Source of the DNA: Escherichia coli
GTDB taxonomy: Bacteria > Pseudomonadota > Gammaproteobacteria > Enterobacterales > Enterobacteriaceae
Assembly (NCBI RefSeq): GCF_003018255.1
Contig: NZ_CP027440.1
Direction: 5' to 3' (one strand)
Length of the DNA: 64,000 nucleotides
Position numbers and translations under genes: made by a program. Shown here piece after piece: positions 3,745 to 60,049 of this stretch (position 1 is its first letter; every line of letters begins with the position of its first letter). The notes under the pieces were generated by a model. That model saw nothing but the letters and a program-made list of their open reading frames with translations. It had not been told where the DNA came from and did not search any database.

Positions 3745-3985
3745 ATTCTTCGACCTCATTTTCCTGACGAATCTGATTTGCCCAACGCTGGGCGGATTCA
3801 GGCACAGTAAACGCCGGTGAGCGCAGAAATGACTCTCCCATCAGTACAAACGCAACATATTTGCCACGCAGCATCCAGACATCACGAAACGAATCCATCT
3901 TTATCGCATGTTCTGGCGGCGCGGGTTCCGTGCGTGGGACATAGCTAATAATCTGGCGGTTTTGCTGACGGAGCGGTTTCTTCAT
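3743..3985 (-). CDS. cedA: cell division modulator CedA
   Basis: ORF 3743-4006; start placed at internal ATG 3985 (MKKPLRQQNRQ...) giving 80 aa. Confidence 0.8.
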   Translation of the reverse strand: MKKPLRQQNRQIISYVPRTEPAPPEHAIKMDSFRDVWMLRGKYVAFVLMGESFLRSPAFTVPESAQRWANQIRQENEVEE

Positions 3986-4188
3986 TACTGGCTTCACTAA
4001 ACGCATATTAAAAATCAGAAAAACTGTAGTTTAGCCGATTTAGCCCCTGTACGTCCCGCTTTGCGTGTATTTCATAACACCGTTTCCAGAATAGTTTCCG
4101 AAGCGGGATCTGGCTGGTGGTCTATAGTTAGAGGGTTTTTTGACCAAAACAGCGGCCCTTTCAGTAATAATTTAAGGAGACGAGTTCA

Positions 4189-57009: not shown

Positions 57010-57357
57010 ATGAATATTCAGTGCAAACGCGTTTATGATCCGGCTGAACAGAGCGATGGTTATCGCGTACTGGTCGACCGCCTCTGGCCACGCGGTATCA
57101 AAAAAACCGATTTAGCCCTTGATGAATGGGATAAAGAAATCACGCCGTCAACGGAACTGCGCAAAGCCTTTCACGGCGAAGTCGTCGATTTTGCAACCTT
57201 TCGCGAGCAATATCTTGCAGAACTGGCGCAACACGAGCAAGAAGGAAAGCGGCTGGCGAACATCGCCAAAAAACAGCCGCTGACCCTGCTCTACTCAGCA
57301 AAAAACACCACGCAGAACCATGCGCTGGTGCTGGCAGACTGGCTACGTAGCTTGTGA
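57010..57357 (+). CDS. yeaO: DUF488 protein YeaO
   Basis: ORF 56989-57357; start at ATG 57010 with RBS gggaga; 115 aa. Confidence 0.8.
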   Translation: MNIQCKRVYDPAEQSDGYRVLVDRLWPRGIKKTDLALDEWDKEITPSTELRKAFHGEVVDFATFREQYLAELAQHEQEGKRLANIAKKQPLTLLYSAKNTTQNHALVLADWLRSL

Positions 57358-57378
57358 TTTTAGTACGCCATCCGGCAG

Positions 57379-57633
57379 TTATTTTTCACCAGCCGGATGG
57401 TCCCGTCGCCACAATGCCCATTCATCAATCGTTTCACCGCCCGGTAATTTGCAATTGTTGCTGACCCCTTGCGCTGTCTGCACAGGAATGAGCGTCCCGC
57501 CCTTCTGCTGGCAATAGACCGACGCCGGATTTGCCATACCAATCTGCGGCGGTTTAGGTGCTTCTGGCTGAGAAGGGGTTGAACAACCAGCCAGGACCAG
57601 CAAGCAAGGCAGAACAAAACTGATAATTTTCAT
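57379..57633 (-). CDS. yoaF: DUF333 lipoprotein YoaF
   Basis: 84-aa ORF with lipobox LAGC. Confidence 0.8.
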   Translation of the reverse strand: MKIISFVLPCLLVLAGCSTPSQPEAPKPPQIGMANPASVYCQQKGGTLIPVQTAQGVSNNCKLPGGETIDEWALWRRDHPAGEK

Positions 57634-57815
57634 TTATTGATCTCACATATTTATCCAGACTTAGAGTATCGCGGTATCGTTTTGTTTTGCAGCACTATTT
57701 TTATTACATTCACTCAAATCATATTACGCCTTGTTTCATCTTTGTTGATGATGTTTTATCATGCCTGCAAAGATTAAATAATCAGCATTTACCCGCCGTA
57801 TCCTGGAGTTGTTTC

Positions 57816-58841
57816 GTGTCAGATCAGATTATCGCCCGCGTCTCGCAATCCCTTGCCAAAGAACAGTCACTGGAAAGCCTGGTCCGACAGCTTCTGGAGA
57901 TGCTGGAAATGGTCACTGATATGGAATCAACCTACCTGACCAAAGTGGATGTCGAAGCGCGCCTGCAGCATATAATGTTTGCCCGTAACAGCCAGAAAAT
58001 GCACATCCCGGAGAATTTTACCGTCTCGTGGGATTACTCGTTATGCAAACGCGCCATTGATGAAAACTGCTTTTTCAGCGATGAAGTCCCTGACCGTTGG
58101 GGCGACTGTATTGCGGCACGCAATCTTGGCATCACCACATTTCTGAGCACGCCAATTCACTTACCGGATGGATCATTCTATGGCACGCTTTGCGCCGCCA
58201 GCAGTGAGAAGCGCCAGTGGAGTGAACGCGCGGAACAGGTTTTACAGTTATTCGCCGGACTGATTGCACAATATATTCAAAAAGAGGCACTGGTTGAGCA
58301 GCTGCGCGAAGCCAATGCTGCGCTGATTGCGCAATCGTATACCGACTCGTTAACCGGGCTACCGAATCGGCGGGCGATTTTTGAAAATCTGACGACGCTG
58401 TTTTCTCTCGCCCGACATCTTAACCATAAGATAATGATCGCGTTTATCGATCTGGATAACTTCAAATTAATCAACGATCGTTTTGGTCATAATAGTGGTG
58501 ATTTGTTCCTCATTCAGGTTGGCGAGCGCCTTAATACGCTCCAGCAAAATGGCGAAGTTATTGGTCGTCTCGGCGGTGATGAGTTTTTGGTTGTTTCACT
58601 GAACAACGAGAATGCGGATATTTCGTCTCTGCGAGAACGTATTCAACAGCAAATACGTGGAGAATATCACTTAGGTGACGTTGATTTGTATTATCCCGGT
58701 GCCAGTCTTGGCATAGTAGAAGTCGATCCTGAAACGACCGATGCAGACAGTGCCCTGCATGCTGCCGATATCGCGATGTATCAGGAGAAAAAACACAAAC
58801 AGAAAACACCTTTTGTCGCGCATCCAGCGCTACATTCCTGA
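57816..58841 (+). CDS. yeaP: GAF-GGDEF diguanylate cyclase YeaP/DgcP
   Basis: ORF 57687-58841; start placed at GTG 57816 (VSDQIIARV...) with RBS ggag 8 nt upstream; intact RLGGDEF; 341 aa. Confidence 0.8.
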   Translation: MSDQIIARVSQSLAKEQSLESLVRQLLEMLEMVTDMESTYLTKVDVEARLQHIMFARNSQKMHIPENFTVSWDYSLCKRAIDENCFFSDEVPDRWGDCIAARNLGITTFLSTPIHLPDGSFYGTLCAASSEKRQWSERAEQVLQLFAGLIAQYIQKEALVEQLREANAALIAQSYTDSLTGLPNRRAIFENLTTLFSLARHLNHKIMIAFIDLDNFKLINDRFGHNSGDLFLIQVGERLNTLQQNGEVIGRLGGDEFLVVSLNNENADISSLRERIQQQIRGEYHLGDVDLYYPGASLGIVEVDPETTDADSALHAADIAMYQEKKHKQKTPFVAHPALHS

Positions 58842-58873
58842 GGCGTATTCACATCCTTTTGATTGGTGATAAC

Positions 58874-58972
58874 ATGCGAATCGGTATTATTTTTCCGGTT
58901 GTAATCTTTATTACAGCGGTCGTATTTTTAGCATGGTTTTTTATTGGCGGCTATGCTGCCCCGGGAGCATAA
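58874..58972 (+). CDS. yoaK: 32-aa small membrane protein YoaK
   Basis: Read by hand: MRIGIIFPVVIFITAVVFLAWFFIGGYAAPGA; not in ORF track. Confidence 0.7.
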   Translation: MRIGIIFPVVIFITAVVFLAWFFIGGYAAPGA

Positions 58973-58974
58973 AG

Positions 58975-59049
58975 ATGAAAAAAACAACGATTATTATGAT
59001 GGGTGTGGCGATTATTGTCGTACTCGGCACTGAGCTGGGATGGTGGTAA
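58975..59049 (+). CDS. yoaJ: 24-aa small membrane protein YoaJ
   Basis: Read by hand: MKKTTIIMMGVAIIVVLGTELGWW; starts 2 nt after the yoaK stop. Confidence 0.7.
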   Translation: MKKTTIIMMGVAIIVVLGTELGWW

Positions 59050-59107
59050 CGTCACATCTAGAAAATAGCAAAGGCTGCCTGTGTGCAGCCTTTGTGCAAT
59101 TTACGCG

Positions 59108-59356
59108 TTAACTTTTAATCTTTCTGTAGATAAACAGCACGACAATCGCGCCAATAACGGCAACCACGAAGCTGCCAAAATTGAAGCCATCGACTTTACC
59201 AAAGCCAAACAGCGTGCTGATCCATCCGCCGACTACGGCACCGACTATCCCCAGCAGGATAGTCATAAAGAATCCACCACCATCTTTACCTGGCATGATC
59301 CACTTCGCCAGAATACCGGCAATAAGCCCAAAAATAATCCATGACAGAATGCCCAT
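59108..59356 (-). CDS. yeaQ: GlsB/YeaQ/YmgE-family stress membrane protein
   Basis: 82-aa Gly-rich two-TM ORF. Confidence 0.85.
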   Translation of the reverse strand: MGILSWIIFGLIAGILAKWIMPGKDGGGFFMTILLGIVGAVVGGWISTLFGFGKVDGFNFGSFVVAVIGAIVVLFIYRKIKS

Positions 59357-59503
59357 TGTTTCCTCACTTATCTGTTTTGCATTAGCGGGTTAGTCGCTGA
59401 TAAAAAGCATAGCACAACATCGTGAGGGCAAGATTTGTGACGAGCATCACGGAGGATTTTTTTGCGATGGCGCAGAAATTGCGCCATCAACGATCAGTGA
59501 TAA

Positions 59504-59686
59504 TTACCAACCACAAACATCATGTTCGTTTTCCGTGTCATAAGAACGCACGGTATTCACCAGATCTTTTATCACTTCAGCCGCCACTTCTGGCACCAGC
59601 AAAGTCATCGGCGTCTCTGTTTCATAATCGACAGAAACGCCATTGCTGTTATTGGTGACGGTCACGGTATACGTTGCTTTGCCCAT
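59504..59686 (-). CDS. yoaG: DUF1869 protein YoaG
   Basis: 60-aa ORF immediately downstream of yeaR (4-bp gap). Confidence 0.8.
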   Translation of the reverse strand: MGKATYTVTVTNNSNGVSVDYETETPMTLLVPEVAAEVIKDLVNTVRSYDTENEHDVCGW

Positions 59687-59689
59687 GAT

Positions 59690-60049
59690 TCATTTCCCGT
59701 TATGAATGACTTTCCGTTGTTGCGCACCTTCCATCAGGACTTCAGGAGCAACGAAGAAGTCAATGTTGAAATAAGTGTCGTCAGTCATGGCTTCAATGTT
59801 GTGCCACTTTTCTGGAGGGAACACAGCAAACTGCCCCGCTTCGATAAGGATCACTTGATCAGGCTCTGTACTGTGTTCATCAGCGTAGCCGAGATATTTG
59901 ACCGCCCCATGCATAACGGAAAGGCGTGGGTAAACCCCCGGGCGCGTTCCTTTATCAAGATGACGTTCGAATATTCCGGCAGGCGCAGTTTGTTTATTCC
60001 AGAAAGGCGTTGAGCGCGTATGAATATAATTCTGTGGGATTTGCAGCAT
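59690..60049 (-). CDS. yeaR: DUF1971 protein YeaR
   Basis: 119-aa ORF. Confidence 0.8.
   Translation of the reverse strand: MLQIPQNYIHTRSTPFWNKQTAPAGIFERHLDKGTRPGVYPRLSVMHGAVKYLGYADEHSTEPDQVILIEAGQFAVFPPEKWHNIEAMTDDTYFNIDFFVAPEVLMEGAQQRKVIHNGK

Follow-up and report, generated by a model that had tools for sequence, protein, structure and literature searches.

We have analyzed two short, tandem open reading frames that lie between the genes dgcP (yeaP) and yeaQ of Escherichia coli, in a 64,000-nucleotide stretch of contig NZ_CP027440.1 that is referred to here as the window. The genes and features of this locus, in order along the window, are as follows.

57816-58841, plus strand: dgcP (yeaP), encoding a soluble GAF-GGDEF diguanylate cyclase, first gene of the unit (RefSeq coding sequence, Pfam).
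58829-58836, plus strand: candidate -10-like element GCTACATT, of low confidence, with positional equivalents in relatives.
58865-58869, plus strand: Shine-Dalgarno-like GGTGA, 4 nt before the yoaK ATG, read from the sequence.
58874-58972, plus strand: yoaK, 32 amino acids, MRIGIIFPVVIFITAVVFLAWFFIGGYAAPGA; ATG at 58874 and TAA at 58970-58972 (sequence, ORF list, RefSeq).
58963-58967, plus strand: Shine-Dalgarno-like GGGAG for yoaJ, within the yoaK codons Pro-Gly-Ala, 7 nt before the yoaJ ATG.
58975-59049, plus strand: yoaJ, 24 amino acids, MKKTTIIMMGVAIIVVLGTELGWW; ATG at 58975 and TAA at 59047-59049 (sequence, ORF list, RefSeq).
59068-59095, no strand assigned: hairpin with an 11-bp stem between the convergent yoaJ and yeaQ (fold -18.6 kcal/mol; terminator-like call on the minus strand).
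59108-59356, minus strand: yeaQ, GlsB/YeaQ/YmgE family, a convergent neighbour that is not part of the unit.

The original prediction had placed yoaK and yoaJ directly downstream of yeaP, and the names proved right: RefSeq annotates exactly these ORFs as such, with yeaP appearing as dgcP. The predicted coordinates, translations and 2-nt gap (AG) between the two ORFs were confirmed base by base in the sequence. The predicted distance of 33 bp past the yeaP stop is likewise accurate, in that dgcP ends at 58841, 32 nt intervene, and the yoaK ATG begins at the 33rd base. The statement that neither ORF appears in the ORF track holds in part. At a 20-amino acid threshold both reading frames are in fact listed, but from upstream alternative starts: a TTG at 58859 for the yoaK frame (37 amino acids) and an ATG at 58933 for the yoaJ frame (38 amino acids).

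Both predicted proteins are members of curated families. YoaK scores 69.1 bits against the NCBIfam equivalog NF033821 (cutoff 32), aligned over residues 1-32 of 32, and YoaJ scores 60.4 bits against NF011343 (PRK14760; cutoff 54), over residues 1-24 of 24. The more divergent Salmonella ortholog of YoaJ scores 42.6 bits against the same model and falls below its cutoff (54). Peptides identical to both are present in the protein collection, entered as YoaK and as YoaJ (the latter with a citation of YOAJ_ECOLI), and gene calls in the contig collection carry the accession PF28021:YoaK; the Pfam copy that was searched contains no YoaK or YoaJ model, and the two proteins gave only noise matches to it. 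A 1.1-kb query around the site matched 5,418 of 5,426 complete E. coli genomes and was covered to at least 80% in 5,397 of them. Among the matches listed, the RefSeq features beneath the query are dgcP, yoaK, yoaJ and yeaQ, with the product names 'YoaK family small membrane protein' for yoaK and 'protein YoaJ' for yoaJ. The gene order in the best genome match is yoaF (minus), dgcP (plus), yoaK (plus), yoaJ (plus) and yeaQ (minus). That the window pair represents the known, protein-coding E. coli genes yoaK and yoaJ is practically certain. Both are already known and annotated, and the finding in the window is in itself a re-identification of two catalogued small proteins.

ORFs of this size are not found above chance level, since 78 ORFs of at least 20 amino acids overlap the 3.5 kb around the pair; what argues for genuine genes is conservation and other evidence. 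Orthologs were collected from 26 DgcP-anchored loci drawn from one-genome-per-species collections. Both ORFs directly follow dgcP in 24 of the 26, and in these YoaK always has 32 amino acids and YoaJ always 24. These two-ORF loci come from Escherichia (six loci, or seven of the 24 analyzed sequences when the window is counted), Citrobacter, Enterobacter, Lelliottia and Pseudenterobacter; the loci that hold yoaJ without yoaK are those of Kosakonia cowanii and Enterobacter sp. EA-1. Substitution rates were computed as pooled pairwise Nei-Gojobori estimates. In its annotated frame yoaK has a pS of 0.611 and a pN of 0.061, or a pN/pS of 0.10, over 24 loci. The corresponding values for yoaJ are 0.610, 0.163 and 0.27, over the 24-codon orthologs among the 26 loci. 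For both genes pN/pS is at least 1.0 in four of the five other frames (1.06-4.9 for yoaK), with the shifted sense frames at 2.6 and 3.1 for yoaK and at 1.1 and 2.3 for yoaJ. The fifth frame, an antisense frame with wobble positions in common, gives low values (0.20 and 0.45). An antisense gene was considered on this account and rejected, as a low value is the artefact expected of shared wobble positions. Third codon positions vary in 31 of 33 yoaK codons and 21 of 25 yoaJ codons, and second positions in 9 of 33 and 10 of 25, respectively. The original prediction had named the balance of synonymous and non-synonymous change in orthologous regions as the test on which protein coding could fail; the pattern found there is that of coding DNA. 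The substitution pattern is frame-specific: yoaK and yoaJ evolve as protein-coding sequences, and both are under purifying selection in their annotated frames.

Both proteins have recognizable conserved features. YoaK consists of one hydrophobic helix, carries a single Arg at its N-terminal end, and shows the conserved motif FP...WF..GGYA.P; columns M1, P8, A15, W21-F22 and G26-Y27 are invariant in an alignment of 17 chromosomal sequences and in one of 15 chromosomal and phage sequences. YoaJ begins with Lys-Lys, in agreement with the positive-inside rule, followed by a hydrophobic core and a C-terminal LGWW; its orthologs conserve M[KR]K[TS]T...G..[LFM]GWW. The start codon of yoaJ varies among orthologs between ATG and GTG. 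A longer YoaJ is ruled out in Enterobacter and Lelliottia, where the in-frame stop codon of yoaK stands directly 5' of the yoaJ start.

The two genes appear to be transcribed together with dgcP. A terminator-like site was looked for between the dgcP stop and yoaK and none was found, and yeaP-yoaK-yoaJ is an operon derived from RNA-seq that serves as an example in OperomeDB (PMC4620388). In a 12-locus alignment spanning several genera, the GG of the Shine-Dalgarno-like GGTGA is invariant and lies 4-6 nt upstream of the yoaK ATG, which supports the annotated start. An equivalent of the yoaJ element, CCGGGAGCA or CCGGGGGCA, is found 5' of yoaJ in most orthologous loci. The junction between the genes is tight throughout: a 2-nt gap in Escherichia, Citrobacter and Salmonella, 0 nt in Enterobacter, Lelliottia and Pseudenterobacter (TAA followed directly by ATG or GTG), a 1-nt overlap (TAATG) in one locus, L088, and a 4-nt ATGA overlap in another, L032. 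Given this tightness, and a putative yoaJ ribosome-binding site that falls inside the last codons of yoaK, the geometry suggests that initiation at yoaJ is probably coupled to termination at yoaK (termination-reinitiation). Downstream, the hairpin between yoaJ and yeaQ is kept in 12 loci, with compensatory changes (on both sides of the stem) at 3 of 11 pairs. Because in Enterobacter it stands between an A-run and a T-run, the hairpin is probably a bidirectional intrinsic terminator that ends the unit.

A promoter belonging to yoaK and yoaJ themselves was also considered. The element GCTACATT at 58829-58836 is a low-confidence candidate for it, and was not called by a consensus promoter scan. 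Its positional equivalents, GCTATTCT in Citrobacter and Salmonella and GTACACTC in Enterobacter, lie ~40-55 nt upstream of the yoaK ATG. Salmonella keeps GCTATTCT and has lost dgcP; the persistence of the pair there without dgcP implies that it has, or has acquired, a promoter of its own. A separate consensus promoter match at 58848-58875 was rejected. With a -10 hexamer that ends on the start codon of yoaK, any transcript from this match would lack the yoaK ribosome-binding site, and the number of such matches is below that expected from shuffled sequence.

Published work places the products in the membrane. An HA-MBP-YoaJ fusion shows integral, alkali-resistant membrane association (PMC4597795), and a type II topology of YoaJ (Nin-Cout) was confirmed experimentally by Fontaine et al. 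2011, according to PMC4597795. These data and the sequences fit the description of each protein, in the original prediction, as essentially one transmembrane helix. The sole reported interaction, ambiguous in meaning, is the co-immunoprecipitation of overexpressed HA-MBP-YoaJ with RseP (PMC4597795). Both YoaJ and YoaK have been assayed as small-membrane-protein substrates of RseP, beside MgrB and CydX, with results that were inconsistent between constructs and that placed both in the weaker 'class II' (PMC10470546). In stationary phase, YoaK tagged on the chromosome can be detected by immunoblot, and is described as one of the worse-expressed members of the original set (preprint 10.1101/511675). 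YoaJ is raised by diamide treatment, according to PMC12542507, which cites Hemm 2010. DgcP is a relatively abundant cyclase with vegetative (RpoD) expression (PMC5635695). Removal of the interval from yeaJ to yeaV did not affect fitness in M9 glucose (PMC9769844); the authors of that study class yoaK and yoaJ among the genes without a known function, and the earlier characterization of the pair as functionally unexplained is thus still accurate.

In our judgement the best overall explanation, and a likely one, is that yoaK and yoaJ encode two genuine, separately translated, single-pass inner-membrane proteins that are co-transcribed with dgcP and are probable modulators within the membrane. 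Each gene would be translated from its own Shine-Dalgarno-like sequence, and the pair would be transcribed after dgcP with no terminator in between, the unit ending at the hairpin it has in common with yeaQ. Initiation at yoaJ would follow from termination at yoaK. Each product would span the inner membrane once, YoaJ with its N-terminus inside and its C-terminus outside, and each helix may bind a larger membrane protein inside the bilayer and tune its activity or stability; the partner would not have to be DgcP. By analogy with other enterobacterial small membrane proteins, we give about even chances to the proposal that the YoaK and YoaJ helices act as such in-bilayer modulators.

Relatives of YoaK also occur in prophages, and their distribution bears on this interpretation. 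A profile search of 1.84 billion representative proteins gave 51 YoaK matches at E<=1e-3, many of them frameshifted, fused or truncated calls. Two divergent full-length matches lie in the immunity regions of lambdoid prophages, directly after an HTH-Peptidase_S24 repressor gene and before hicAB. When E. coli YoaK was compared by tblastn to 50,697 phage records, a 32-amino acid ORF with 61-71% identity was found in phages HK106, mEp234 and mEp506 and in Klebsiella phage ST974-OXA48phi18.2. This ORF carries no annotation in the first three phages and is misannotated as 'CI transcriptional regulator' in the fourth. In HK106 the ORF (MRIGIVFPILVFIVAMGFMAWFIIDGYATPSG, positions 2501-2599 of locus L033) is part of the pRM-to-Timm immunity unit, with cI on one side and hicA on the other, and a search for a terminator-like site ahead of the annotated Timm found none. 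A scan of IMG/VR gave at least 80 YoaK loci. Among the matches listed, 32 are host flanks with a GAF-GGDEF gene followed by yoaK and yoaJ, at the edges of prophage predictions, and 48 are phage-borne; about 38 of these 48 lie 12-172 nt downstream of a co-oriented gene for a CI-type repressor (HTH_3 or Phage_CI_repr, with or without Peptidase_S24). None of the 48 phage-borne loci listed has a YoaJ-like ORF beside YoaK, and YoaJ itself has no tblastn match in the phage records. Since phages carry YoaK alone, YoaK can presumably act without YoaJ.

The phage ORFs are themselves maintained as genes. They have a pN/pS of 0.27 in frame vs 1.3 and 1.7 out of frame, and pass NF033821 with 54.9-73.6 bits. 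They retain the C-terminal GGYA.P though no yoaJ follows; this motif is thus constrained at the level of the protein and not merely as the ribosome-binding site of yoaJ. In 6 of 5,426 E. coli genomes, the prophage copy of the HK106 type bears the product name 'YoaK family small membrane protein' from the RefSeq pipeline, so that its membership in the family is already implicit in annotation; our literature search found no paper connecting YoaK with prophages. What goes beyond existing annotation is therefore only a part of these results, namely the occurrence of the YoaK family among prophages and the separability of the pair from dgcP.

These observations could be taken to mean that YoaK is by origin and function a prophage lysogeny gene, serving for example in superinfection exclusion or membrane protection together with the repressor, and that the chromosomal copy has been domesticated. 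The identity between E. coli YoaK and the phage ORFs, their purifying selection and fit to the YoaK model, their frequent position behind a co-oriented CI-type repressor, and the uninterrupted immunity unit of HK106 would all be accounted for. However, neither the chromosomal nor the phage versions have a meaningful match in PHROGs or PADLOC; no PADLOC defence model and no annotated PHROG is matched. The phages may instead have captured a host gene. Moreover, chromosomal yoaK occupies a stable, non-prophage locus across genera, beside a yoaJ that is never carried by phages; in the window it lies between dgcP and yeaQ and not in a phage repressor transcription unit. We consider this origin and function unlikely. 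A related proposal, which we advance as speculation and with equally little confidence, is that the YoaK helix is a portable membrane module, produced by temperate phages along with their repressor, the chromosomal yoaK being its resident counterpart. If this were true, the target of YoaK would be conserved, would lie in the inner membrane and would be of importance for phage infection (a DNA-entry route, for example) or for envelope stress, chromosomal yoaK would gain a function, open to test, in excluding phages or in the fitness of lysogens, and YoaJ would be a chromosome-specific addition. In any event, the large and mostly unannotated set of prophage YoaK relatives right after a repressor gene makes a phage-linked phenotype worth looking for.

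The original prediction had found the position of the pair after a diguanylate cyclase gene intriguing. That this position is meaningful is weakly supported: the order is kept wherever dgcP exists, but Salmonella has the pair without dgcP, and phages have yoaK alone. A specific version of the idea is that YoaK, YoaJ or both are dedicated partners of DgcP that tether or regulate this soluble cyclase at the inner membrane, in local c-di-GMP signalling. DgcP matches the Pfam domains GAF_2 (1.4e-10) and GGDEF (5.6e-41) and has no membrane segment of its own. The order dgcP-yoaK-yoaJ, with no terminator, is found in five genera as well as in the 32 IMG/VR host flanks among the matches listed. Furthermore, the Kosakonia yoaJ lies between dgcP and a gene for a 606-amino acid GGDEF/EAL-like protein, and in locus L032 the pair lies between two GGDEF genes. 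The chromosomal cases nevertheless all derive from one ancestral locus, so that the synteny counts as a single observation. Salmonella enterica has lost essentially all of dgcP and retains both small genes intact (yoaK MRVGILFPVVVFITAILFLAWFFIGGYAAPGA and yoaJ MRKTTMMLMGIALIAVLGTELGWW, between yoaF and yeaQ), together with the Shine-Dalgarno-like sequence before yoaK; only ~70 nt upstream of yoaK align with the 3' end of Citrobacter dgcP and the spacer. Conversely, in Kosakonia cowanii and Enterobacter sp. EA-1 dgcP is followed by yoaJ alone, yoaK being missing, and the 48 phage-borne YoaK genes listed have no GGDEF neighbour and no YoaJ. The link of dgcP to yoaK-yoaJ is not obligate, and a dedicated partnership with DgcP is improbable. 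Comparative genomics in fact separates the pair from DgcP, as dgcP, yoaK and yoaJ can each be lost alone; an effort directed specifically at c-di-GMP is for this reason less likely to pay than an unbiased search for partners.

A role as membrane-damaging peptides in the manner of the type I toxins Hok, TisB, Ibs and Ldr is very improbable. Both proteins are indeed small, hydrophobic and limited to a single helix, and YeaQ and YoaJ match small toxin or membrane models, though only below threshold. Against this, Rfam finds no RNA family, antitoxin or other, in 57300-59700 on either strand at E<=1, and the sole antisense promoter-like match (59021-58993) is within chance expectation (2 found, with a shuffle mean of 3.9). 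The genes lie at the end of a housekeeping operon with their ribosome-binding sites exposed, tagged proteins accumulate in normal cultures (10.1101/511675), and the RseP study names HokB, and not YoaJ or YoaK, as cytotoxic (PMC10470546). Finally, the notion that these ORFs arose by chance in a 3' untranslated or intergenic region and encode no protein, to which the abundance of ORFs of 20-40 codons (78 in 3.5 kb) and the frequency of AT-rich, hydrophobic-looking ORFs might lend some color, can be dismissed in view of the frame-specific substitution pattern, the lengths and starts kept across genera, the matches to curated family models and the detection of the proteins in published work (PMC4597795, 10.1101/511675).

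The reading that we favor, of two separately translated inner-membrane proteins that probably modulate a larger one, can be set beside several known systems. The pair in the window does not differ from YoaK and YoaJ of E. coli K-12, with which it shares the amino acid sequences, the neighbours (yoaF, dgcP, yeaQ) and the 2-nt junction, and in E. coli strain 104 the region is 100% identical over 1.1 kb. The type I toxins (Hok, TisB, Ibs, Ldr) are similar to YoaK and YoaJ in size and hydrophobicity; in contrast to them, yoaK and yoaJ are operonic, with Shine-Dalgarno-like sequences of their own, no antisense RNA partner found and no reported toxicity. The phage homologs of YoaK occupy the slot downstream of cI that holds rexA/rexB in lambda and hicAB in mEp234 and HK106, between cI and hicA, ahead of Timm. 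Phage YoaK has no sequence similarity to lambda Rex, and the likeness is one of gene position that concerns the phage paralogs and not the ORFs of the window; unlike the chromosomal locus, phages have no YoaJ. Several small proteins are known that regulate larger inner-membrane proteins or complexes: AcrZ acts with AcrB, MgrB with PhoQ, MgtS with MgtA, CydX with CydAB and KdpF with KdpABC. The locus differs from the AcrZ, MgrB and CydX type in that the gene upstream of yoaK-yoaJ encodes a soluble enzyme and not a membrane complex. Like YoaK and YoaJ, however, proteins of the AcrZ, MgrB, MgtS, CydX and KdpF type have fewer than 50 amino acids and a single helix, are encoded in or next to an operon, and are often induced by stress or in stationary phase.

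The dgcP-yoaK-yoaJ arrangement is not kept intact in all enterobacterial loci that we compared, and the missing member can be either dgcP or yoaK. The yoaF-yoaK interval of Salmonella enterica (GCA_033669885.1, positions 3805-4177 of comparison locus L028) is without dgcP; what is left is a stretch of ~70 nt with homology to Citrobacter, where it corresponds to the 3' end of dgcP and the spacer behind it, and yoaK and yoaJ follow, both intact. The gene caller found yoaK in this locus and missed yoaJ. Conversely, yoaJ alone follows dgcP, with yoaK absent, in Kosakonia cowanii (L023, 4129-4206) and Enterobacter sp. EA-1 (L027, 4124-4198). The Kosakonia YoaJ is 25 aa long, and the next gene, co-oriented with yoaJ, encodes a 606-aa GGDEF/EAL-like protein (L023, 4303-6123) in place of the convergent yeaQ. 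Further downstream variation is seen in Escherichia albertii NBRC 107761 (L004, 4235-4330), where the yoaJ terminator hairpin leads directly into the yoaG region (window ~59500 onward); from this junction, yeaQ appears to have been deleted.

The features of the window discussed here are:
57687, + strand, TTG start of the longest dgcP ORF, 384 aa
57816, + strand, GTG start of the RefSeq form of dgcP, 341 aa
58829-58836, GCTACATT, a -10-like element with C at -13, at the extreme end of dgcP

The shorter, 341-aa annotation of dgcP is supported, since orthologue matches start at residue 1 of that form. Positional equivalents of the GCTACATT element are present in Citrobacter, Salmonella and Enterobacter. 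The element is a candidate internal promoter, from which yoaK-yoaJ may be transcribed.

In six entries of the protein collection (P0017-P0020, P0028 and P0065), which are 40-97 aa long, a perfect YoaK sequence forms the N-terminal part and the remainder comes from another frame; among them, P0018 is a YoaK-YoaJ fusion of 57 aa. Each of these calls probably reflects either a frameshift error or a rare but genuine fusion across the 2-nt junction.

At least about 30 IMG/VR prophage predictions (L082-L111), mostly ~38 kb, end at the exact stop codon of a host yoaK, which is preceded by a GAF-GGDEF gene of 337-340 aa. Among the IMG/VR matches listed, both of the two contigs that reach further have yoaJ next after yoaK. 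The yoaK ends of these contigs look like host DNA taken in at the boundary of the prophage call, and they may mark an integration hotspot adjoining dgcP in that host.

YoaK-family genes also lie within phage genomes proper:
L034 2480-2599 (MK448237.1), Klebsiella phage ST974-OXA48phi18.2, 39-aa CDS labelled 'CI transcriptional regulator'
L033 2501-2599 (NC_019768.1, 30467-30559 region), phage HK106, unannotated 32-aa YoaK-family ORF between cI and hicA

The Klebsiella phage CDS is misnamed: its product, MRIGIAFPASVFIIAVAFLAWFILGGYATPGT, is a YoaK-family small membrane protein, and a genuine HTH repressor gene directly precedes it. The same peptide was found again in at least 14 IMG/VR loci. 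The HK106 ORF scores 54.9 bits against the NCBIfam YoaK model, above the cutoff; the same 32-aa ORF is carried by mEp234 and mEp506, and in HK106 it lies within the lambdoid immunity unit that runs from pRM to Timm.
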